This document shows positions 5,004-55,096 of a DNA stretch of 64,000 nucleotides, piece by piece (position 1 is the first letter of the stretch; each line of letters begins with the position of its first letter). Position numbers and translations under genes: made by a program. Location of the stretch: contig NC_092352.1 in the NCBI RefSeq assembly GCF_963676685.1, positions 19,468,001 to 19,532,000 on the forward strand, in the 5' to 3' direction. A model generated the notes under the pieces. That model did no database searches, had not been told where the DNA came from, and saw only the letters and a list, made by a program, of their open reading frames with translations. This DNA is from Mytilus edulis. Lineage: Eukaryota.

Positions 5004-5989
5004 ATAACATAATTGATGATTTGAATATTTTTTAATAAAACTACTCTTTATTCCCTAGAATGGCACTACTAAGAGAAAAAGGTTTGAAGTGGATAAAATG
5101 CCAATGAGATAAGCAATCAAACGATAAAATAGCATCTAACAGTCAAAATGTGGTCTTCAAGAACTGAAAATGTGTACATAATTTCAAGCTTTAAATCGCC
5201 GAACGTCTAACAAATATTTAATGAACAGAGACAAACAAAGATCTATCATTAACAAGTATGTCCTAAATATGACAAGATATAATTAAAGACCACCACTTTC
5301 AGGAGGTTAAATTATGATATCATTTTTATCATCTCCACCCTCATCTTAATAGAACAATAAAAGGTTCGTCCATGAACTTACAATAAAAGTTAGTACATGA
5401 AAGGTGCTCAACGATATAAAAGTAAAAAAGTTACACAAAAAAAAACACATGTACAATGAAAACCATATCAAAGAATGTTTATATTTACAGAGAGCAAACA
5501 AAAAGAAAGTTTTGCTTATTCAGCGAAACGACTTCATTTGTTACGTACAAGACGATGAATAAAAAAATGAAACGACAATACAATAATAGCTTGTCATGGT
5601 AAGAGGTCAACTACGACACAAGGAAAGATGCACAATAACCATTCTATTGTGCACACTAACTGTTATTGTCCTTGACTTAATTATAGGGTCAGTTTCTCAG
5701 TTGGTATGAGAAAAAGTCAAAAACACATTTGGCCACCAGATTCGTTATATATGGATTACAAGTCGCATGAAATGATTCACCGAGCGCATTTTTACCCGTT
5801 CCTCTTAAAATTTTCGTGATTAGGTCATGTTGTTTTCATGTCCCTTCTTTTCATTTTTGATAATCAAAAGGTGATCTTTACTTTTTGTGACCTCCTGTTC
5901 AACGGTTAGTTTGAGTGATTAATTAAGATGACTGACAGTTGTTGTTTGGAAGTGAAGCACAGTTGGTCATGAGAATGAATGTTTGTGAA

Positions 5990-8349
5990 ATATTATATTT
6001 GACAGTGGAACTATTCCTGATAATTGGCTTTCCGGAAATATAATACCTTTATTTAAGAATAAAGGTAACAAACATGATCCTAGCAATTTTAGACCTATAA
6101 CAGTTATAAGCTGCTTTGGGAAATTATTTACTTCTATTTTGAATTCACGTTTGAATAAATTTTCTGATGATTTTTGTTTACTATGTCAGAATCAAGCTGG
6201 TTTCAGAGAAGGTTATTCTACTACAGATAATTTATTTGTTATCTACATGCTTATAAGTATCATGAAAAATAAGAAAAAGAAACTATTCTGTGCATTTGTA
6301 GATTTTGCTAAAGCCTTTGATACTGTTAGGAGAAAGGGTCTTTGGCATAAATTACTTGTGAATGATATTAACGGTAAAATGTATAATGTAATTTTTAATA
6401 TGTAAACTGTTATTAAATCTCGTATTATGTATAATGGTGAAATGTCAGAATACTTTTCATGCAATATCGGTGTAAGACAGGGTGAAAATATGTCTCCTTT
6501 TTTATTTTCATTGTATTTGAACGATCTTCAACAGTTTATTGAAGAAAAAAATGTATGTGGTTTAAATTGTATTACTGATGAAATAGAGAATGAGTTTGAT
6601 ATCTACTTAAAACTGTTTGTGTTATTGTACGCAGGTGATACAGTGTTATTTTCGGATAATGCATCCGATCTACAGTTGCAATTAAGAATTGAATGCTTCT
6701 TTTTGTAACTTTATTAAGGTGTAAAAGCGTTGACCGAAGTACATTTTGTATGAAGCGCGGAAGCGCTTCATTCTAAAAATGTACGCACGGTCAACGCTTT
6801 TACAACCCTATAAAGTTACAAAAAGAAGCATTCAATACTTATAATTACATTTTTTAGCTATGATCATGAAAACACGAATTTTATATATTTTATTATTTAA
6901 TTCACCTGTGCACTTAATTTTTGGAGCACGTGTTATCATGAGTGAAAAGTTGTATTGAGCAATGCAACTGCTTACGGAATAACACGTGATGTGCAGTTAG
7001 CCAATCAGAATAAAATATTATAATGAAACATACATCTAATGTAATTATTTAGATATATTCTTTGAATATTGCAGTACCTGGAAATTAAAAGTTAACACAA
7101 GTAAAACTAAGATTATAATTTTTTCTGGTGGTAGATTACCCCAAAATATTAACTTTATATAAGACGGAAATGCATTGGAGATAGTCAATGAATTGACATA
7201 TCTTGGGTTGAATTTTTCAAGAACAGGTAGCTTTATGAGTGCTAAGAAGATTTTAGTTAGAAAAGCAAATAAAGCAATGTATGAAGTATTGAAAAAAGGG
7301 AGGTTGCACAACTTGTCAGTGAAATTGCAATATGATCTTTTTGATAAAATTGTGAAGCCAATTCTCCTGTATGGGTGTGAGATTTGGGGTTTCAGTAATA
7401 CTGATATTATAGAAAAAGTGCATTTAAAATTTTGTAAACTATTATTAAACCTTAAGAAGTCGACACCCAATTTTATGATTTATGGTGAACTTGATATTTA
7501 TTCCATGTCTTTATATATACAGCTGCGTATGGTTAATTTTTGGTCAAAAATGGTAAATGGGGATGATAACAGGATTGCTAAAATACTATACAAATACATG
7601 TTCTTGAAAAATTCTGACAACCAATTTAGGTCAGATTGGTTGAAATACATTAAAGATATATTAGATAAATGTGGATACAGCAATATATGGTTGTCACAAG
7701 GAAATTTTAATTTTAAGTGGTTGGGTATTTAGTTAAAACAAAAGTTATTTGATCAGTTTCAACAGAAATGGAGACCTGATATTGACTGTTCGTCAAAAGG
7801 TTTGGCCTACAAATTGTATAAACAAAATTTTGAATTTGAGGAATATCTGAATATTTTAAGTGATAAAGATAGAATAACATGTTGTAGATTTCGTACGGGT
7901 AAACCATAAGTTACCCATCGAAACTGGTAGATGGAATAAGATTGAGCGAAACCTTAGATATTGTAACTTATGTCATTGTAACGAGATTGGTGGTGAATTT
8001 CATTACACTTTGCAGTGTAGTTCTTTGGCAAATTTTCGAGCACAATATTTGGATACTTTTTTCTTGCACAGATGTAACATCCTAAAATTTGAAAAACTAT
8101 TTCAGTTAAAAATTAAAAATAAGTTGAAAAAGCTGTGCAAATTTATCAGGGTTATAACTTTTCAAGTGAGTCTTTCTGGTTAATCACCACTCTTCTCTAC
8201 TATACTGTTTATTTTATTTTATTTGATATTTTCATCTCATCTTGTCATGTGTGTTTGTGTTATGTTATATGACTTTTGCTGAACTTCTTTGTACCATTGT
8301 ATCTTTATGGTGTTTGAGAAATAAAGAATCTTGAAATCTTGAATCTTGA
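5990..8349 (+). mobile_element. 5'-truncated, decayed non-LTR retrotransposon (CR1/L2 group); reverse transcriptase pseudogene plus 3' UTR
   Basis: RT motifs DPSNFRPITVISCFGKLF, QAGFREGYSTTDN, FVDFAKAFDTV, GVRQGENMSPFLF, LLYAGD (from YADD), LKVNTSKTK and YLG. C-terminal CNLC..IGGEFHYTLQC. Several stops and frameshifts; the ORF ends near 8183. The 3' end has aataaa plus a (tcttgaa)-type tandem tail at 8320-8349. Confidence 0.9.
6685..7048. mobile_element. Non-autonomous element with a long asymmetric hairpin, inserted in the LINE RT domain
   Basis: Removing it restores ...DLQLQL|DIFFEYCSTWKLKVN. tta is duplicated at 6682-84 and 7049-51. A hairpin with about 70-bp arms spans about 6688-6837. 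Confidence 0.8.
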
Positions 8350-15205: not shown

Positions 15206-18200
15206 AGCTAGGTTGACACTGCCGATCAGATCAACTCGATGATCCCGATTGTCCAAATTTCCACGACCAAGCTCAACCAAATTCTACCCGACCGCCATCC
15301 GACTGTACACGACTTTAACTCGACCATTCACGACTCCTTAATGACTCCATCACGACTACCTCCCGACAACAAAATGAATACTTATTCGATAACTCCGATC
15401 AATTAACGATCTTTACACGATCTTTGCTCGACTAGCTAGACCAAATTAAATATTCACGATCTCAGCCTGATCTCGACCAGACCAGATCGACCTGATCGTA
15501 TAAGGGTCGTAGGTATAATCGGGAATTGGTCGGGTATGCACATTTTTAGTATAAAAACGTTCGATTTTTATTCCCCGCCGCTTCGGAGTGGAGATAAAGT
15601 GTTTCCCTTGTCCGTCCGTACGCACGTGTACGCCCCAACACGTCATAATGTTATATATGCTAGCTAGGGCATTATCAGTGTCCAATGGACACATAGACCG
15701 TTTATTTGGTTATATTCAGTAGAAGGTCCGAGTAAAATCATACATTTAAAATATCTACATAGAAATATAGCAATTGGATTTGTGGGCAAGGTGCATCTTC
15801 GCTTGGATCGTAGCCATTGGCTAGCGAAGATGAGGGAAGTGGATCGTTCGTTACCCATGACTAGCCAAGATGGGACAAGGTGGTGCTCAGAGAGACAGGT
15901 TAATAGCTGTGACGGAGCTTGAAGAGTGCATAGAAGATGAACAAGATTGTCTAGACAGCAACGGGCGCCAAGAAATCTAGATGAGACACGACGACCATTG
16001 TGTGGGCATGCAGTGTCACAGTGGAAAAATGGACAAAAATTGATTTTGAGACTTTTCGGACATTTTGTAAAAGTTTTGTAAAATCACTGTTTTGTTATAT
16101 TTGCAATATTTCACTAAGAGATTTTGTTATTTTTATTGCGCAAGATTTAAGTCAAGTTTAGAAGATTAAGCTAATCTAATTTCATGTTTTAATTTGTTTC
16201 TCAATTAGCGATATTTTACTTCAAAATGATCTATTATTCGTATATGACAAGCCAAGACTTTAATTCCATAAATAAGTCTGTATGTTCTATTGTTAATTAT
16301 TATCTATGTGTTAATTTTTCTGTAATCCCTTTATTGAATTTTCTCACTCATTTAGAGAAATACTTGTCAAGTCTATTTAAGTTGTTTTTGGTTCGTTATA
16401 TAAACTATGTTGTTATTTTCATGTGGCAGATTGGATTTATATATATAGTATTACACTGAGCAGTTCCAACTCTGTATGCTGAACTTATTAAATTATACAT
16501 CGCGCTAACCAGAGTCGTCTTTTGTTACAAGAGCTAGTCCCAGAGTTAGAGTCCGTGTAGACTTGTCGTTCTGTTTATTGTATGTGTGTGGTTCCAGGCC
16601 AACACATTTCCCATTCACAGATACACCCCAGAATCTATTTGTGACAGCAGTATGAGAGACTTGCACTAACTCAACAAAGAGGAAATCAATGCTTATCAAA
16701 ACTTCCTTATAGTGGACACTGATATATAATGGTAGTTTTATTGCTCTTTTTTTGGAAATGACACCACAAAATGAGATTTGTCACTGGATTAGTACTTATG
16801 TTAGATAGCAATATACATAAACTTTACCATCCCCATTTCCTTGCTTTCTTACAAATAAAGTGTACTGTTTTTCAAATATATGTGCATAAAATATGTAATC
16901 AGTATTTTTCATAGATTACATACCCAGTAGTTTTAATGGTTAAAGATATTGATTTTTTTTTTTGCTGTATGGCAACAACCTGTATGTATTTGCCAAAAAA
17001 TATTGCAAAAAGAGGGCAAAGATGTCACATATTTCCCCCAAATTTGACCCAAAGTAGAATTTCAATCCCCTGGAGTGATACCTTTTCTGAAACAGTTTAC
17101 AACTTTACATATATCTATCAAGAGATCAAGAGTGCATTTCTTTCTAACCAAAGTTTGGTAAAAGTTGTGTGCCGTTTGCTATATATAGTTTGTTAAATGT
17201 TACAAAAATAGAAACAAATGCATCGTTTGGTTAGAGGGGATTGAAATTTTGAGTAATTTTAGACAAAGTTTGGAGTTATGACAAGCAACAACACGTTTAG
17301 ATGATTGATTTAATTTCAAAGTTAGAAAGAAATGCTTCGTTTGAACTAACAAACGACGAACGACAAACTACAGACGCATTTGCAGCGAGTTTAAATTGTC
17401 AAAGTTTATGCATGAAAACTTGCTAAAGTATGTTAGAAACAAATGATCAAAACGTGTGCTCGCTGAACACTTTGTATCGTTACTGTTAGAAAGAAATTCG
17501 CACCAAATAAAAAATATCTGTCTTTCATCTCATTTTTGTGTGAAATTACGTAAAAAAAGTTCGAATAAAAAAAATGACTGTAAGGTGACCTATAGTTGTC
17601 ATTGTGTGTTCTGTGAAGAGGTCTCATTGGCAATTGTACCACATCCTCTTTTTTATGCTACAAACATTTCTAGACAAACGAAAAATACGGACAGATAAAA
17701 CAGAATATAGTCCATAAACAGGTAAAATATAATCTTGATGTTCTTATAAACCAACTTTGAAAGATAACTTAGTCATCAGCAGTCTAACAATGAATATCAT
17801 TGCACAATTACTTTAATATTTGAAAAATCCGCCGGTGCCAACATTGCAGGATTTTCTTCCCTTCCGGAACATCTAAGATCATCCACGGTTGTGTTGGGTT
17901 ACGTGTTGCTAAGTTTTAATTTTTCTATGTTATGTCGACTGCCAGTTGTCTTCTCGTCGGTTTTCGTTATTCGCTATGGCTGTGTCGGTTTGTTTTCGAC
18001 CTTTGCGTTTGATTGTTCCTTTGGTGTCTTTTGCCTCTCTTTTGAAGTGTTACCTCTCCTTGCAAAAGGAAAGACATGTACTGTACATGGTGGAATTTTT
18101 GTAGGGTTAAAAATAATGTTGTCAATATATTTTTGCGGAAGCAGAGTTATGAGAGTTAATCAGATCTGCACACACTTTTAGAGAATCGTGTATGGCCGAG

Positions 18201-26158: not shown

Positions 26159-26640
26159 GTAAGTGAACAAACACATTAAATACTTGCTGTGGTAATCACT
26201 TATTTGTAATAAAAATCAATCTTCAGGGTATTAAGACATTTAGAGAATTACTACATCTAATAGTCACAGTAGACTGAGTAGTGATTATTAAGACATTTAG
26301 AGAATTACTACATCTAATAGTCACAGTAGTGATTATTTTCAAAAGTCGTAAAAGTACTCAAGGTATGCCGCGAACAGTTAAAAGTAAAATAACAAAATGC
26401 TCCTGAATGGGTTTGACCGACAGACAAACGTCTACATAATATTCATCAGTTTCGATTCAATCAAAATAGCAATTACGAAAACCAAAAATTGAATTGTTCT
26501 GTCAACTCATCAATCGTCCTGAGCATGCCTGAAATATTTGCCACTGGACCTTAAGCAACAAACAACCAATTATATTTCACAAAGTGCAGATTTTACTGTT
26601 GCTAATGATTTAATTAATATTTCCTCTATTATGCTAACAG

Positions 26641-27375
26641 GTATCACTGCCAGTTAAACTTGATGCGGACACTTGGGTATCAGTGCTAGAACAGTCTATG
26701 TTATTCATATTCATTCTGACAAGATGGATGTTGCCTAGAGGACGAATAACACGTGACCAGTTATCTCAACTGCTATTTGTTTATATTGGATCAGCGTCTG
26801 ACGTCATGGAGTTATTTGTTGTGTTTGAAGAACCTGAAATTAGGTCAGACTTATACCTGAGTTATGCTACATTAGGAGTCTGGTCATTGAGTTTGATTCA
26901 GTTTTGTTTGATACTTACTTCAACCAGGGATATCGGTGGTAAAATAGTTGCAAGGGAGACTGACCTTGAAGCTGAGGTGCCAGAAAATACCCCAAAGGGT
27001 GAAGAAAAGGAGAAAATGCCAAGTTGCTGCGATAGAGTATTTGAAGTAGAAATTTGGAGCTTATTTATTTCCATGTTTTTACAAGATGGTCCTTTTTTAG
27101 TTGTCAGACTGTACTCAATAATTGTTAAGGGGGTATTGTCTTACGGAATACTTTTCTTTACGGCCAAAAATGTGCTTGTTCTCTTTTTACAGTTCTATCG
27201 CATAATAGTGATATGTAAGAAAATCAACACCATTGGCTCAGAGGAAGAAGACAAACCGACTCCTTTAAAAGATAGAAAGTCAGTCCCACCTGCAAAGAAA
27301 GCATCAAAGCAATCACTAATATCAAATAAAATTATTGGTTCCACCTCAACTAAAAACAGTTTTCTTGATCCATAG
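26641..27375 (+). CDS. TMEM26: Transmembrane protein 26, coding exon 3 (terminal)
   Basis: ctaacag acceptor. Encodes LEQ...RWMLPRGRITRDQLSQLLFVYIGSASDVME, QDGPFLVVRL and FFTAKN, all TMEM26 hallmarks. TAG at 27373-75. Confidence 0.95.
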   Translation, partial: VSLPVKLDADTWVSVLEQSMLFIFILTRWMLPRGRITRDQLSQLLFVYIGSASDVMELFVVFEEPEIRSDLYLSYATLGVWSLSLIQFCLILTSTRDIGGKIVARETDLEAEVPENTPKGEEKEKMPSCCDRVFEVEIWSLFISMFLQDGPFLVVRLYSIIVKGVLSYGILFFTAKNVLVLFLQFYRIIVICKKINTIGSEEEDKPTPLKDRKSVPPAKKASKQSLISNKIIGSTSTKNSFLDP

Positions 27376-33508: not shown

Positions 33509-36225
33509 TTAACAGATATTTTGTACGGTAGATAGTTTCTTAGTGACTGCGGCTCGGTTTCAATTCTTGAAAAAAATAGAAATTAATAATTCGGAAACAT
33601 TTTTAGGAACATTTGGAAGATCCACCAATATACCACAGTGTGTTAATCATCTTTTTTAATACGGGTATACAATAAACAAAATAAATGTATAATTGAAATT
33701 CAAAGGAACATTAAAAGATACCATGATTGTTCATGATTTTCTTTATAGTAAATTTATATGGAGTATTTCATACATACTACAAAAGGATAGAAGGAACTAT
33801 TTAAGAAAAACCTAAGCGTCACAACAATCAACAGCAAACGACATCAACCATCAACATCCTGCACATCACAAAATAAAACAAGCACACAAACAAACAAACA
33901 AATACACAAATACACGAACAAACACACACACAAACAAACATTTTCAAACAAACAAACAAAGAAGTCAATGATCCTGATAGTATTTGTTTGGTTTCCAAAA
34001 TAAATTTTCAATACCTGATTCCCTTATTAATTCCTTTTTGGTTTTAACCCTTACCATGATGTGACCGTCATATGACGGGAGTACCGAAACCACCGTTATA
34101 TGGCTCCAATAGCGTTCCATACCTTTAGGAGTCACTTTTATGATACTCATTTCGAAAGTTATGCATGTTCCGTCAACCTGAGGCTATCTATTGTCATGTT
34201 TCTCGGGTATAAATTGCATTTTGAGCACAAATACGGACTTAGAGAATTGAAATCGGACGAAACTCGGTGTTCTGGAGGGGTTGGCTTCCCTTCTGTGTCT
34301 TACACAGCAAGTTCAGAGACCTAAAACTTGCTAAAATAGTGCAAACCCGCAGGCATATAACTACTGATCGTAATTATTATTAAAATACGCATAGGAAACG
34401 ACTACTTTCGGTTTCGAGTCCATTTGAAGTAAAAATTCGTGAAATTCCGTATTTTTAGTCCAAATGACCTTCTTTACACTGCTAAACCAAGATCTGTTGC
34501 AATCAATTTGTTAACTTGGGTCCACTCTACATACAGGCTACAGTTTGATACCTTTACCAGCATCCCTGGGTCTTCGGGGTCACGATAAAGGACGAAAAAT
34601 CGTCAAAATTGACGCTTTTTGCACCTGATGACCAACTTTGGGGCATATTATTGCAAATAAACGGAAATTAGACTTTTTCTGAAAAAAACAATTCAACATG
34701 GTAAGTGTTAATATACATGAACAGCAGTATATTTGTCATAAAGGTAGGACAGTTGTTTATGATAATTTTAGGTCTTTGAAGATCAATTTAACGCAAATGT
34801 TCCTAGCCTGTCTAAGTTATGTTGTCAATTCTGAATTGTATGGTTTTGCGTTTTATTCATTGTCTGTCATACAGTGTTATACTTTATGTGTATGGATAGA
34901 AACTAAACAGTAAACGGATACGTATTAATACTGTGGCCTGGTATCAGTTCATATTAGTATACCGCGTGGTTCTGGCCTACAACTGAGACACCTTTTATTA
35001 AAATTTAAACTAATACTATACGTAAAACTATATATATGTGGTGGTGTTTAACGACCTTGACTGGCCTTTCAGCCCTCGCACGGTCGGCTCGGTGCCCGAA
35101 GGCGTTTGGTGAGCTTTAAATATTCTGGAGCCATGGGTCAGGAACAAATAGTGGAGGTCGCAATATGGAGGCCGCCATCTTGGTTTTGGTGAGTTGTTTT
35201 TGGTTTTTGACTATTTTGTTGTTTATTCTTCACTAACGGCTGCTTTCAGGGCCAGTTTGGTCAGCTTGGCAGCCCGCTAGCCTCGATGATGGAGTACTGG
35301 TAGATGATCTCGGACGTAGTTCGAAAGATGACAGGAAGCATTATCAGGACCAAAGCCGTGAGGCAGTGAAATGAAGGTCGTATCACCCAACAGCCTAGGA
35401 TACAGCCCTCGGACGTTAATCGGCATAACACTCCCCATAATACAATGGTTTTGGAGTGCATGTTAACGCGGGTACGCCAACCGCTACGTCTATCTGTACG
35501 GCATGGATCGGTTTCTGTCATCTTAAGTAGTAAGTCGTTGATATCTAACTGTAAACCCTCATCGAAGATAGCGGGTAAAGGAGAGCTGGCCCAGCACGTC
35601 CGTTCAGCTGTAATGAATGAGACGTGAATGAAAATGATACGTAAAACTAAAAGTTTGAACATGATTTTATACAAACGGTAATCGAGATACTTTAACAAAA
35701 TTTATTTTGTTCTCAATTTCATTTTATTAAATCAATTTACATTTTTTTTTTCATTATGTGCTGAGATTTCAAATATGATAAAAGTTTATGATTGTAACTT
35801 AAATGAAGGCCATGTATCTATTAAGGATGTGAAAGTCATCTTATAAATATATGTATATTATATTTGTCAGTGTTGCAATAAAAACTTGATAAGCAAGACC
35901 TGTATTGGTGTTATGTTTGGACTTGTACCTTTTTTTTTTTTTTATTATCTATAACACTGTAATGAAACAGTTAGTACTTTGTCCTTTTATATGATTTTTT
36001 ATTACATGGTTTTAATGTGAAATTCGAATTACAAAAATCTAGTTTAACCCTGTACAACTGTTTATGCACATGTCCAGAGTCAGGTACCTTGTTAGCGGGG
36101 AACGACTATATAATTTCAAAAGGGGGGTATGTGTTTTTCCTAAATAAATATTATGATCCTCGTTGTTGATGAAAAAAATATTGTGGTCCAGCAGATGGCA
36201 AAAGAAAAATCTGACTCTAAATTTT

Positions 36226-36585
36226 TATAACCGGGCGTTTTCCGTGTTATAGTGATGCAAAGACGGAATACCAATACTTTAAACTTTATTAGCAAGGTCC
36301 GGACAGTACCAGACCTAAGACCTAAACTGACTACAAAATGACATACACAAGCATATATAAAAAACAGTATCTATAGAAAAGGATTAGTGTCCAACGGATT
36401 AACTTGTCATGGTCAGAGTGATTTCCATCAAGACAAACATATATTTAACAATAGAATTAATTAAACACAAAGAAATATAAAAGGTTAGATAGACGGATTA
36501 ACAAATTGTCACTTTAGCACTTAAAATATAATGTCTGATCTTAATTTATTTGTAATCGCAAATAGTCCAAATCTTCCTGGTTATA
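36226..36585 (-). repeat. 3' LTR
   Basis: Inverted termini tataacc...ggttata; aataaa on the minus strand near 36285-90. Confidence 0.93.
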
Positions 36586-36637
36586 TTCGCCACTACTCCA
36601 CCTAAACTCGGTCTCCGAGTTTGCCGAATGAATTTTG

Positions 36638-37546
36638 TTATCGTCGTGGGTATCCTCCTCCTCGCCGATGACGTTGCTGCGAATTGCCACGCGAGCAAAT
36701 TGCATAGGTCGAAAGCGCACCTCGGTTTGAATGTTTTATATCTAGATGTTGAATCTCGTGTCTACTGTTTACGTTCTCTGCCTTAAGTCTCTGAATTTCG
36801 TCTTCCATATCATTTAAGATGCGATTGTACTGCAAGTCAGTATTTTTAAACTCCATTGTTAAGCGTTGTCTAGAGTTCGTTAAATTTAGGTTTTCCTCTT
36901 TCAGTTGAACTATTACTCTTTCCAAATGCTCAGTTCTACTTCTATGTTCGGCTAACTCATGTTCTATCTTTTGAATTATCCGGCCATGTTCTAAACGTTC
37001 CAAATTTACTTTGTCCAAACTGTTCTTTAAAATAACATTTTCTTTTCTTACGGTATCCAATTTTGAATTTTCACTTTTGAGTACAGCTATTTCTTTCAAC
37101 GAGTTACTGTGAGAAACTTTTAACTTCTTTAGGTTCTGTTTAGCGGATTCGTCTTGTATGGAGCACGTAAAAACGGAGAGTTCCTTGTCCACGAGTCCTT
37201 GAAACGGAAATTGAGACATTTGCTTCTTCTCAATAAACGTTCTCATACGGTCACTGTCTCTCTGAATTTTGGATTTCGACTTTGATTTCTTCTTCGGTTT
37301 TGGGTTTTCATATGACTTCACGTGAAAACTACACATACGGGCAAAATGTCCATGATGCCTGCACTTATAACAATGAGCGTTAGCTGCATAACATCGATGG
37401 TAGGTGAAAACGTTCAATGTCTTACCGCAATATTTACACAGAAAGTCCAAACAGGTATCTTCTTTTCTTATCGGAAACGGCTGTCCATTTCTGCAAGGCT
37501 GGTAATTCCAGGTTCCTTCCATAGTGTTGTTTCTGAAGGTATCCAT
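36638..37546 (-). CDS. 302-aa LTR-element protein: Gypsy/Mag-like zinc knuckles, basic segment and long coiled coil
   Basis: CKYCG...HRCYA...CYKCRHHGHFARMC (CX2CX4HX4C), then KPKKKSKSKSK, then heptad-rich residues about 135-270 and an RG-rich tail. The intact ORF fills 909 of the 1015 internal bp. Confidence 0.85.
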   Translation of the reverse strand: MDTFRNNTMEGTWNYQPCRNGQPFPIRKEDTCLDFLCKYCGKTLNVFTYHRCYAANAHCYKCRHHGHFARMCSFHVKSYENPKPKKKSKSKSKIQRDSDRMRTFIEKKQMSQFPFQGLVDKELSVFTCSIQDESAKQNLKKLKVSHSNSLKEIAVLKSENSKLDTVRKENVILKNSLDKVNLERLEHGRIIQKIEHELAEHRSRTEHLERVIVQLKEENLNLTNSRQRLTMEFKNTDLQYNRILNDMEDEIQRLKAENVNSRHEIQHLDIKHSNRGALSTYAICSRGNSQQRHRRGGGYPRR

Positions 37547-37584
37547 TTACTAGTTTGGGGGAACTAGCTCAAGATCGTGCCGCG

Positions 37585-37598
37585 GGTACCTCCACCAA
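37585..37598 (-). promoter_or_regulatory. Primer-binding site, tRNA-Ala-like
   Basis: The minus strand reads TGGTGGAGGTAC just inside the 5' LTR. This is complementary to the 3' end ...GUACCUCCACCA of eukaryotic tRNA-Ala. Confidence 0.75.
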
Positions 37599-37600
37599 TA

Positions 37601-37960
37601 TATAACCGGGCGTTTTCCGTGTTATAGTGATGCAAAGACGGAATACCAATACTTTAAACTTTATTAGCAAGGTCCGGACAGTACCAGACCTAAGACCTAA
37701 ACTGACTACAAAATGACATACACAAGCATATATAAAAAACAGTATCTATAGAAAAGGATTAGTGTCCAACGGATTAACTTGTCATGGTCAGAGTGATTTC
37801 CATCAAGACAAACATATATTTAACAATAGAATTAATTAAACACAAAGAAATATAAAAGGTTAGATAGACGGATTAACAAATTGTCACTTTAGCACTTAAA
37901 ATATAATGTCTGATCTTAATTTATTTGTAATCGCAAATAGTCCAAATCTTCCTGGTTATA
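37601..37960 (-). repeat. 5' LTR
   Basis: Identical by eye to 36226-36585. Confidence 0.93.
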
Positions 37961-38140
37961 TTTTCACCATACCTCATAGTGTTAAATTTTGAAAAGAAAA
38001 TAGCCTTATTGATAACGTCGAAAAACAAATTAAAATGCTCGTGTTATGCGCAAAAACAAATGCTGACTCAGACCAAAAAAACATACCACTCTAGAAGTTA
38101 ATTGGTTCCCTTTTCATGCTTATAAATCTTTTGTCATATT

Positions 38141-38562
38141 GGTCCGAGACCACAACAAATATAGTCCCTAGTGTTGACAGTGGGTTACTTGCCATTAATT
38201 TTTATACCCCTTCCAAATTTATTTCTCCATGTTTAATGCCTCATATTGCAAGTAGGGGGTGAAATTACACTGTAAAAAAATTTGGGTCCAGAATTTTAAA
38301 GGAAAGTAGTGATTTGGTCCAGGTGAAAAAGGTTGAAAAATAGCACTTCGGAAGCTGTCAAAAGATTTCAAGACGCCCCAAAGATAAAATTGTCCATATT
38401 TTGAGTTAGAGGCGATGAAGTTTTCTATAATTTTGATATAATTTGTCCCAAAAGTAGTACAACACACTGTAAAAGTTTCTTTTAGAAAGCGCAGGTGGGA
38501 TTTTTTTATTTTCATTTATGTTCTAAAAGAAATGCACTACGAAATAATTGTGGTCTCGGACC
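38141..38562. mobile_element. MITE with 15-bp perfect TIR and apparent 5-bp TSD
   Basis: ggtccgagaccacaa / ttgtggtctcggacc; atatt on both flanks. Confidence 0.85.
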
Positions 38563-41500
38563 ATATTGTTAAATGTTTTTGTTATTTTGAGAATTTGGTA
38601 TTAAGGGTAGATCTTTCATGGTATTTATTAATCTTTCTGGCATATTTGATGAGCACGTAAATTGTTGACAAACTCATTTACGTCTTTGGTTGCTTTCTTC
38701 GTTGACTTATATCTTATTTTCTGCTTGGTTCATATCTGTAGCCATGGCCAACAGTTACTGCTTCTGGTAACAAAGGAAAAACAGTGGATATTCAATAAAA
38801 GTGTTGAGATGGCATTAGTAAAATCTAAATTTATTAAAAAGTATATTTAATTTCATACGAATCACCCAACAGGACCACTCAATGCATAAAAAAATAAATA
38901 ATTGAACACAAAAAAACAAAAAAAAACAAAAAAAATGTTCACGTAACATATTTTGATGTAAACCATTGTAAGAAATGCTTAAAAATGACGTCACAGGTGA
39001 CACATGTAGAACAGGATCTACTAACTCTGCCGGAGGTCATGAGTTCACGCCCTGTTTTTAGAGACGTTTTTGTTGATCAGTCATTAGTTTTCTATAATTA
39101 GTGCTTTGTCGACTTGTTCGTCCTTTCGTTGTTTTTCGGGTTTTTTTTTGTCAGATTTTCTTCGACTTTTGAGTTCTGAATGTCCCTTTGTTATCTCTCA
39201 CTTCTTATTAACAACACGCTGCTAACGACAAAAACAATGTTTAAGCATACGCGAATAGTACTAAATACTGACATTTGATATAACGAAATTAATTCCCAAA
39301 TAACTTAACGAAAAGGGTTTCAAGCGTATCCCATAATATCAAACTTTGGTTTATATGATATATAACTATGTTTTTTTTCGAACATTTAGTCAAAAGTTAA
39401 AGGACACTTTAATTGTAGTAATGGGAGAGTGCTTGTTTGTTGTCGTGACATTGTATTTAAAATGTATTTAATGCTAATGCTTTGGTTTAAACAATTATGT
39501 TTTTGTAGACCACATACCCTTATTTCTATTAAATCGACATATTTCGTCTCAAACTGCATACAGCGCAATCGTTCGGGTCATACTTTCTCTTCTCTTCTAA
39601 AGACAAAGAATCGTAGCATTACGTCACAACTGTTTCAACCATTGGGTTTGTATGTCGTGCTGCATGCAACTGCAAGAAAGTCGTAAAAAATACTATGCTT
39701 GAGTTGTCTTCTCTCATATTTTTACAGTTATCGCATATTCAAACCTATGTAAGTTAATTTCTTTTATGTGAATTATTTAACATTTACTCGTTTATCGAAA
39801 TATTTCTGCTATCAAAACCAATTGTTTTCTCTATTCATTCATTTTAGGACCAAGTACGTGTATCTTGATTTGGCCCATAGTTGTTTAATATATATATGTA
39901 TTGTTTCTGTATTTAACAATGATATTGTCAGGTAAATGAAGGAAGCATTTGTTTCTCTCTTCGTTGTAGTCTATAATATCTTGATATTACACTACATCTG
40001 AATTAAGTTTTCATTTGTACTTTATCAACATCTTCAAATAGAAGCTAGGGTCTTGATCTTACAATGAGAAGTGTGTTTTCATTTTTTCTAATACTAATAG
40101 TCATAATAATGTAAAAAAGACAGCTGTAGAAGTTGTTCAACTTGGGGTTTGTTTTTGCATTGATGGTTTTCGATCACAAGCCTTCTTTTCAATTTTATTA
40201 AGGATGCAATGCTGATGTACAACAGGAATTTCTTGAAATGAAATACTTGGAATCTAGATTACATTATCATTGTAGTCTTTTCATCTTACTAGTCTCATAT
40301 TTTATATTTATCCTCTAAATTATCATCGAATAGAGGATAAAATTTGAAAAATAGGAAGGACAGGAGTTTTGATTTTTTTAAAAAGGCAGGATGTGCAACT
40401 TGGCAAGATACAGTTACTGCTTGGCTCTTGTTGTATATGATATCTGTTTATTTTCTTTTTTATGTCGTGAATTTACTCGTTCGTGTACTACATGTTCACT
40501 GAGATCAACCAAGTAGAATGTTAGGTGATGTATATGCATAGCAGGAGATGTTATACCCGGTCGACACACAGTCTAGCTCCTTTATGAGTTCACCCTGATT
40601 TGTCTTTTCTAAATCGATTGAAGAAATTTGAACTTTTTAATTGACTGTTAGTTTTATTACATTTTGCACTTTTTAGTAAAAAAAATACGGCAAAAAAAAA
40701 CTGGTAATGAATAACAAGTCTTGTCTGTTTTAGACCTTTATATCACTCTGAAAATTTTATATGAATGATTCCAGATTAATGGATATACATTCCACCTAAG
40801 TCATCCCGACCAAAATTTCAATTCTTTCATCCGTATTGATATTTTTGTAGTTTGTAGAAAGTTAGAAATAAAACACAATTTTCTAATGACAAGTTGTATA
40901 GCATGTATTGTTAACCACCAGCTCTCTGTTACACTGTATTATAAATTAATGCTGTAATTTCCTTTAAATGTAAATAAATATTGGTTTTTTTTATAAAGAT
41001 TTCAAACTTTGGAAATGTCATTACTAAATTAATTCATTCTCTGATTTCATAGAACTGTACAGTACAATAAAAACATCGTTATCGGGCCGGACAACATATA
41101 TAAATAGGTAGATGAGAAATGTCTTATGACACAGATGACCTTTAGGAACTGACAATAAGAATTCTGATAACTTCAGTTTTGTTTAATTTCAATGTATATG
41201 TCAAAGTTGTGTTTCTATTTGCAGCTCGCTTGCACCAGTACGTCACTAGTAATTTAAACGAATAACCCACACAGAAATATGTTTATGTATAAAAAAAATT
41301 TTTTACATAAAAATGAATAAGGTGTATAAAGGGTACTTGAGCTTAAATGTGAATGTTCTAAATCCTTTTGTGGTTCAAAATTAAATAAATATCACAAAAC
41401 ATTGCACATTGCACAGTACTGATGATTAAATAGTTTGATCAATTTTGAAAATTGGTGCCAGTCTATGCATGTTTAATTTACTATGATTATGCGTCTTTTT

Positions 41501-53539: not shown

Positions 53540-54278
53540 CTAAAAAAAAAATGTGCAATGTAGAAAAAAAGGCAAGCAGTTTAAATAAAACATACATTAA
53601 AACAAAGATTATATCGTTCAATTCATGTATTACTGTTTCTATATTATGAGTAGGTTGAATGATAAAGAGACGAACCTTTGTGATTTTTTTTCTGTTTTTT
53701 TTTAAATGATGACTTTAACTTGGTCTCCGCTACCATTCGTTTTCTTTTTTTTCGTGTTTCATTTTTATTAAATTATTGTGTTGTGCATATGCGTTTCACC
53801 TCTGTTTTTAACATTTCATTAACGAATCGTTTTCTTTGTTTTCCAAATATGTCTGCAAGATATTGTTATCTTATCAGAAAAGCAATTTCCGTCGGTTTTA
53901 CATAACGAACCAGTTACTTTATATTCCAAATATGTTTGCAAAATATTGTTATCTTATCTGAAAAGCAATTTCCTTCGGTTTTACGTACGGTATAATAGAA
54001 TTTGGGAATGTATCAAAGGCATAACAACCCGAAAAAAGGACAGAAAACAGCCGAAGTCCGCCAATAGGTCTTCAACTAAGGGAGAAAAATCCCACACCCG
54101 GAGTCGAGCTTCAGCTGGCCCCTAAACAAAATGTGTACTAGTTCAATGAAAATTGATGCTTTTATCGCACTGAGGTCAATTATTGCCTAAGCTGTATAAG
54201 CTGAAGATTTATCATGTCTTTCTTGCATTTCCAGCAGATGACTGCGTTCGTTGGGATTTTACTAAGAGCTAAACTTAC

Positions 54279-54511
54279 TTGGAAACTGGTTTCTTATTAT
54301 CGATGGTGTTTTGGAGATTCGCTGTTGAAACTGTTAAAACATGTGGTCTTCCTAAAATATCTGATGTTGGCTTCATTGGTCGTCTCGGTTCACTTGGGAT
54401 GGTTAGTACTGGCGGTCTGTTTTCTTGGTCATACACTTGATTTCTCATCCATGTAACTTGTGAATCCTTGTATTGTCTTTTAAACTTAGATCTTCTGTTT
54501 TGAAACCAGAT
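54279..54511 (-). CDS. PRD-class homeobox gene, exon with helix 3
   Basis: ctttttcag acceptor; IWFQNRRSKFKRQY; donor gtaagt at 54278. Confidence 0.9.
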
Positions 54512-55096
54512 CTGAAAAAGACATGACCTCTGTAACCGATTGTCTTCCTGATTTTTATGTTTTAGTGACAATTCACATTTTGTCAGACTCGAATTTGAAC
54601 AGAGATGCTTTTCAATCAATATAGTATTTCCTGTCATTTGGAGGTTAATCTTTTTAAACACGTATTTTTTTAAGCCATCGGTTACAAAATAACAAGAATA
54701 AATCTTTCAAGTAATCCTATTTTTTAAAGTTATGTACGCATCATATAACATGTAAATTATATGTATTGCTAGTGATTGATTAAATGATTTTTGTTTACTT
54801 AAAGTCCAGCGGCAAATATTACATATTAAAAAGTGGGAGAAGTGGTATGATTGCTAATGACACATCTATCCATCGGAGTTGAAATAAAGTGGTAATAAAT
54901 AATTATAGGCCACTCAGTGTCGATACATATTCTGGCGCGAAAAAATAACAATGTATACAATAAGTCGATTTTGCAAGGTGAAATATTCCAAAGTTTTTCA
55001 CAATACCTAGTTTTTAGAATTGGAAAATCTATTTAATATTTCAGACCCGGAAATCATCTGCTTTTAAAAAATCTAAAAATTAATAAGCATACTTAC

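Follow-up and report, generated by a model that had tools for sequence, protein, structure and literature searches.

The window, a stretch of 64,000 nt of Mytilus edulis DNA, carries on its minus strand an LTR retroelement of 1,735 bp (36226..37960) with a single ORF. Its 5′ LTR (37601..37960), which has a TATA-like box at 37729-37734, and its 3′ LTR (36226..36585), which has AATAAA at 36285-36290, are both 360 bp long and, as the original prediction had it, identical, with 0 mismatches. Each begins TATAACC and ends GGTTATA; these ends had been put forward as a special trait and, though present, they are common to the helper families G6, P3, P4, G1 and G3 considered below. The predicted 4-bp target site duplication (TSD) is represented by TTTT on either side (36222..36225 and 37961..37964), and while in the local T-run this could be due to chance alone, a 4-bp TSD borders 22 of 25 insertions of the family to which the element belongs, here termed F1 (23 when the compound locus L022 is resolved). 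The interior of 1,015 bp opens with a 3-nt spacer (37598-37600), a primer binding site (PBS) for tRNA-Ala(AGC) which on sequence comparison is two bases longer than the complement of the tRNA (37578..37597), and a second box (37557..37571) complementary to the 5′ end of the same tRNA, where a small hairpin is predicted. The ORF follows (36638..37546; 302 aa), its ATG 54 nt past the LTR, and it was measured to fill 89.6% of the interior, in keeping with the anticipated 90%. A polypurine tract (36586..36602) leads into the 3′ LTR by a junction nearly identical to that of G6. With one ORF occupying nearly all of the interior, the element has no reverse transcriptase (RT) or integrase of its own, and its paired LTRs, PBS, polypurine tract, TSD, dispersed copies and pol-bearing partner are those of a non-autonomous LTR retrotransposon.

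The neighborhood is itself rich in repeats. Two of very high copy number flank the insertion (35300-35660 and 38155-38563, the right one with inverted ends of about 32 bp), LINE fragments lie at 5989-7732, and 16014-16646 is a solo LTR of a sister family, F9 (90% identical, TG...CA, with GCAG on both sides). To either side of the element there is, judged by eye, a membrane-protein-like exon (26638-27375) and a homeobox-like exon (54275-54706).

A search of the 1.37-Gb genome, in which the best 40 of 145 candidates were scored (at least 49 matches), yielded 27 full-length F1 units that represent at least 25 dispersed insertions, two of them tandem pairs, which disposes of a single-copy locus or an assembly duplication. 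LTRs are identical in nine of the 27 units and differ at no more than 10 positions in any. An ORF of at least 280 aa is kept in 21, and over these (the 6 broken units being omitted) dN/dS is 0.34; the ORF is under purifying selection and is not evolving neutrally across copies. Near-identical LTRs, TSDs and the fusions with G6 described below sustain the proposal of a young, recently active satellite retroelement mobilized by a Gypsy helper. Among the matches listed, a contig in one of four DNA runs joins 36210 to 37960 with 11 other letters between, a putative empty allele. The element is covered by contigs in four further runs, one registered as RNA-seq and three presumed to be of RNA, its unique flank having no cover in two of these and little in the other two; expression at this locus is only suggested, because contigs show neither level nor strand. 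That F1 is real, active and selected, with its likely helper identified, can be said with high confidence.

In four of the 27 units the PBS is exactly complementary to the host tRNA-Ala(AGC) gene with CCA added; the remainder have a bulge, and in the window the predicted tRNA-Ala PBS takes an imperfect 20-nt form of the 18-nt complement. At the level of sequence this establishes tRNA-Ala(AGC) as the primer for reverse transcription of F1. In a tree of 25 rows, constructed with the PBS excluded from the alignment and second tandem units omitted, the four copies with the exact 18-nt site occupy four separate positions, each with bulged relatives beside it. Copying of the tRNA during plus-strand synthesis, an established mechanism, would leave such a pattern of exact sites. 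Because the exact copies are scattered, each next to bulged relatives, the bulged PBS is suggested to be the form that propagates. Possibly, and this is speculation, an imperfect site is kept, despite tRNA copying restoring the exact one, as an escape from silencing by tRNA fragments. The duplex of the second box with the tRNA 5′ end has a calculated energy of −27.6 kcal/mol, which 0 of 200 shuffles reached, and similar boxes are present in most satellite leaders and helper U5 regions and across the helper clade. An imperfect, family-specific tRNA-Ala(AGC) site, like that at 37578-37597, is kept in nearly all of the families F2-F9, P1-P4, G1-G3 and G6. The same primer is used by five LTR elements that measure 1.7-3.5 kb and have no long ORF (L089, L138, L142, L188 and L191), three of which share LTRs with the gag-pol family G2. 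Genome-wide there are 263 pattern matches to tRNA-Ala genes, with large tandem arrays at C2:86.17-86.21 Mb and C11:65.26-65.33 Mb.

What does the single ORF encode? A nucleocapsid-type double zinc knuckle (aa 37-72; 37331..37438) is followed by a basic stretch with 13 K/R in the 37 residues of aa 74-110, a basic helix with the motif KS-x6-RD-xx-R and then PF (aa 84-115; 37202..37297), and a predicted continuous helix or coiled coil (aa 133-287; 36686..37150) whose heptad a/d hydrophobicity in the best phase is 0.51, so that the foreseen basic patch and coiled coil are both in evidence. The two structure models agree in having the knuckles, one helix at 91-111 and a single long one. Constraint among the 21 long-ORF copies is strongest in the knuckles (dN/dS 0.15) and the basic helix region (0.17 for aa 74-125), weaker in the coil (0.36) and gone in the tail (about 1). 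The absence of a capsid, asserted earlier with the proviso of a hidden fold, has stood up: neither model has a capsid fold, a capsid profile made from 11 local gags without G6 gave no match to the protein (E 5.4), and no Pfam family, capsid included, was above its cut-off. The knuckles had been termed Mag-like. A double knuckle is indeed present, but its type is that of the nucleocapsid of gag-bearing Gypsy relatives with the same primer in this genome: profile A2 matches the knuckles of all 11 knuckle-bearing local gags (E 5e-13 to 3e-4), and six Cys and one His are invariant in an alignment of 67 sequences. By this comparison the knuckle is derived from the Gag of the local Gypsy clade. Foldseek with the model gave no match at E<=0.001, the best hit of a VIA fold search (Z 5.7) was to generic helices, and an Atlas search provided knuckle leads only, all under 0.9. 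The protein is best described as a nucleocapsid-type knuckle, a conserved basic helix and a predicted coiled coil, with RNA binding putative. Stops or frameshifts occur in 14 of 37 F1 records scanned and are mostly private to one record, three lesion positions being shared by two records each (one of these pairs is a tandem pair). Mostly private lesions are to be expected if each RNA requires its own protein, and they lend indirect support to the earlier suggestion of action on its own RNA, which is likely.

F1 is not alone. Nine mini-LTR families, F1 among them, were found in the genome, and the other eight are also LTR-bounded and encode homologs, those aligned being 20-32% identical to the F1 protein; F4 and F8 are 71% alike in DNA. 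Their LTR ends vary (TA...TA, TA...CA, TG...TA or TG...CA), and in F1 and the three sisters measured dN/dS is 0.22-0.55. Of the best 150 profile hits, about 80 by hand count have the whole module near the protein start, and these proteins are no longer than 376 aa. No RT or integrase domain was listed among 39 hits to proteins of 238-2000 aa, two long Mytilus gene models among them being taken as listed. Of 22 hits to protein relatives, 21 are named as from Mytilus species, and two of 20 homolog clusters looked up are multi-copy Pinctada genes. In six distant homologs (P0082, P0103, P0126, P0128, P0129 and P0165) the far end of the coil bears another double knuckle, a putative two-headed RNA-binding design; a query with P0128 found no match in metagenome contigs.

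Candidate helpers came from a list of Gypsy families using the primer, compiled from 34 hits to the exact PBS and 150 matches to a protease query. The foreseen Gypsy partner with the same LTR ends and primer is probably G6, the copies of which (L306-L311 and L314) are 7.2-8.6 kb, with ends TATAACCGG...GGGGTTATA and so the TATAACC...GGTTATA termini of F1, and a Pol in the order PR-RT-RH-IN. The LTR junction of F1 matches that of G6 at 31 of 41 positions, the best of 15 other families, P3 being next with 26; beyond a 34-nt junction the two have no DNA similarity. At four of 43 distinct F1 loci read, F1 is joined to G6, and in three the join lies within one TSD. At L276 an F1 LTR and interior are continuous with a G6 interior and LTR, the whole bounded by a TTAA duplication, at L022 a G6 LTR is between F1 sequences inside AAAG, and at L275 an inverted join is inside TATA, this TSD lying in a TA-rich flank; the fourth (L271) is complex and was read at its near end. 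No join of F1 was found with any of 23 further elements bearing pol that were tested (4 pol-only and 19 knuckle-bearing, with flanks mostly of 1.5 kb), including G1, G2 and G3, which have the same primer. One apparent join, L012, was rejected, the match being to a repeat inside one query. Template switching, or integration of one cDNA into another, within a shared particle best accounts for the composites, which are evidence of co-packaging, not of dependence. G6 is the likely helper that copies F1.

The Gag of G6 matches the capsid profile made without it (E 2e-20 to 2e-24), but a CCHC knuckle is absent from all six gag regions read, and Pfam found no knuckle in the three searched. In three copies dN/dS is 0.14 in the capsid versus 0.83 where relatives carry knuckles. 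G6 has lost its knuckles, and an Arg/Lys-rich stretch that it retains after the capsid could bind RNA in their stead. None of the seven copies read is unbroken. The LTR pairs of G6 are 98.9-100% alike, so that F1 and G6 have both been active recently. Since the G6 Gag lacks knuckles, its relation with F1 may be mutual rather than parasitic. A complex prediction of aa 30-160 of the F1 protein with the G6 capsid, made without alignments, scored 0.00 and 0.00 and is counted for neither side.

Other families go further. P1-P4 are four Gypsy families of 7.4-8.3 kb with young LTRs in which a short leader without coding capacity precedes a Pol ORF that opens with the protease, at least 14 copies of P1 and 10 of P3 being colinear across it. 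Six frames of 13 pol-only loci gave no capsid or knuckle signal, and Pol is constrained in the three P families measured (dN/dS 0.09-0.14). In an RT tree of elements of the M. edulis genome, with 11 loci lacking a usable RT left out, P1-P4 form one clade (support 100/98) and G6 is on a separate branch; since G6 and the pol-only clade are not sisters, the losses of gag parts would be independent. Intact Pols of 1,560-1,650 aa are found at L197-L206 and L214 (C14:34.52 Mb, C9:63.70 Mb, C6:20.71 Mb and others). The P1-P4 Pol has an extra C-terminal extension, which by eye may hold extra chromo-like repeats; a protein search with the P3 tail matched one Mytilus protein, and a query of viral contigs with the Pol tail found no match.

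This clade too is fused to satellites. F3 is joined to P3 at four of ten loci, three joins being inside one TSD (GTAC, CTAT and GATT), a ratio that is not unbiased because two of the joins came from searching P3; F4 is joined to P1 once, without a TSD assigned. F5 and the L211 family, in which knuckles and a third, env ORF are present, begin their LTRs alike, have the same PBS and are joined to each other once, so that satellites can be said to ride also on helpers that have kept a nucleocapsid. Pieces of F5 and F6 abut pieces of L207 in an old cluster, L265. Several relatives of the helpers have a gag-pol-third ORF layout; gag, pol and an envelope-like third ORF are present at L190, L207, L211, L215, L216 and L299-L301, several with tRNA-Ala-type primer sites. 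A partner with capsid only was looked for by two queries with capsid, which gave 96 and 77 matches among the best candidates. Of twelve capsid loci taken up because no protease match was adjacent, one, L290, is an LTR element, the rest appearing to be broken or complete gag-pol copies; the absence of a capsid-only partner is not thereby established, because searches that score best candidates only overlooked G6 itself. The L290 element (852-2941), seen once, is 2.1 kb with one capsid-like ORF of 368 aa resembling the start of the L190 gag.

The reading to which we incline, by no wide measure of confidence, is that F1 is a satellite that supplies the nucleocapsid function missing from G6, serving both RNAs. 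Its protein would bind its own RNA first, a cis preference, would oligomerize via the coil, anneal the tRNA to both parts of the imperfect primer site and bring satellite and helper RNA into one particle of G6 capsid, where G6 Pol would copy both. The sister satellites appear to serve the gag-less, pol-only clade likewise. The simplest history would have satellites arising as parasites from a Gag knuckle, with some helpers then losing the part provided.

A less generous interpretation of the satellite, possible if rather unlikely, is that the protein tags only satellite RNA for loading into helper particles, with G6 relying on its basic post-capsid stretch instead. The retention of that stretch, the private ORF lesions, which fit cis action, and the pairing of F5 with a complete, knuckle-bearing helper are all what this would lead one to expect. 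It does less well with the partner of F1 being without exactly the domain that F1 encodes, with the near-neutral evolution of the knuckle-equivalent region of G6, and with two more satellite families fused to helpers that have no gag at all. That the protein is instead a dominant-negative Gag fragment damping the helper, whether as interference or as host restriction, is improbable. A capsid-less knuckle could sequester helper RNA, and restriction of the Ty1 p22 type is a precedent for interference by a Gag fragment. Set against this, the ORF is in elements that still transpose with those very helpers, it is conserved across nine mobile families, and no LTR-less host copy was found among the loci read; the interference with the helper mooted in the original prediction has drawn no evidence. 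Pol-only P3 was at first taken as the helper of F1, with which it has the same 7-nt termini and a 20-nt motif in common, but it was dropped and is now a very improbable candidate: there are no F1-P3 joins at the 43 loci versus four with G6, the motif amounts for the most part to the tRNA 5′ box present across the clade, and the junction match is weaker. Least credible of all is that F1 arose simply by deletion from a gag-pol element and carries its ORF as a passenger, for though the knuckle derives from the Gag of the clade, the DNA similarity to G6 ends with the junction, the module recurs in small proteins and it is under purifying selection in four families; the earlier caveat of a simple deletion product can be set aside.

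If the satellite does supply the nucleocapsid, F1 and G6 are likely halves of one split retrotransposon, because G6 has lost exactly the part that F1 encodes. A bolder extension, unlikely enough to be offered tentatively, is that one Gypsy lineage of bivalves has divided into retrotransposons of two obligate parts, with the satellites carrying the nucleocapsid half on a coiled-coil scaffold and the partners deprived first of the knuckles (G6) or of gag altogether (P1-P4). In the pol-only pairs the satellite protein would possibly replace the capsid, with an ORF1p-like particle and LTR retrotransposition without capsid. Were Gag split between two mobile elements there would be a segmented retrotransposon, and with it a natural test of the cis and trans roles of nucleocapsid, while the pol-only clade allows one to test if an LTR element survives with no capsid of its own. 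Many bivalve gene models labeled ‘CCHC-domain’ or ‘PPL’ and attributed to the host can be re-annotated as likely transposon ORFs, and TSD-bounded chimeras provide a means of assigning helpers to satellites.

Non-autonomous retroelements are usually regarded as parasites, and in the cooperative cases known to us a whole Gag is donated to a complete helper. Several systems invite comparison as analogies only: LINE-1 ORF1p, in which a coiled coil and RNA binding are combined in a cis-acting RNP protein; MaLR and BHIKHARI, with an LTR-ORF-LTR layout and a single ORF; and the knuckle-less foamy virus Gag, with its basic boxes, a model for G6 managing on its own. Our literature search, with Repbase and most subscription journals outside its scope, found no report of a nucleocapsid-only satellite with a nucleocapsid-less helper; F1-type families may be catalogued in Repbase or in supplements. 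Such elements are absent from the accessible text of two mollusc surveys (PMC6238403, PMC10294476) and an errantivirus survey (PMC13524379). Of the small elements, the biv-TRIMs of bivalves are, in the accessible part of PMC6934838, non-coding and under about 1 kb, and the animal Helenus elements, in that of PMC10886601, are up to 1,263 bp and non-coding, with TSDs of 4 bp, and are believed to rely on Gypsy. On these descriptions F1, with 1,735 bp and a selected ORF of 302 aa, is unlike a TRIM. An ARAGORN scan for tRNA genes called none at this locus (L001), a tRNA-like sequence inside the LTR being the Helenus trait.

The closest parallels are from plants. The elements called TR-GAG are small, with LTRs, a PBS, a polypurine tract and one ORF, for a Gag with capsid, and have no RT or integrase (PMC4350172, in the portion available), and the wheat elements RLG_Quinta, RLG_Sabrina and RLG_WHAM bear a capsid and are Gag-only, with complete helpers (PMC11302176 and PMC9744471, likewise in part; the same portions mention Sabrina variants with unrelated short ORFs, a partial parallel to F1). 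As far as those portions go, F1 resembles all of these in having termini and primer in common with its helper and in its proposed protein contribution to a cooperative system, and it stays below 4 kb, has a single ORF and lacks pol. It departs from them in that its ORF has no capsid domain and in that the helper itself is without the part supplied. On the helper side the precedent is BARE-2 of barley, which has pol without gag and borrows Gag in trans from the complete BARE-1 (PMC4350172, same portion). P1-P4 are like it, so far described, in having pol and lacking gag, and unlike it in being fused to satellites that carry the nucleocapsid half only and in constituting a clade that is old and diversified.
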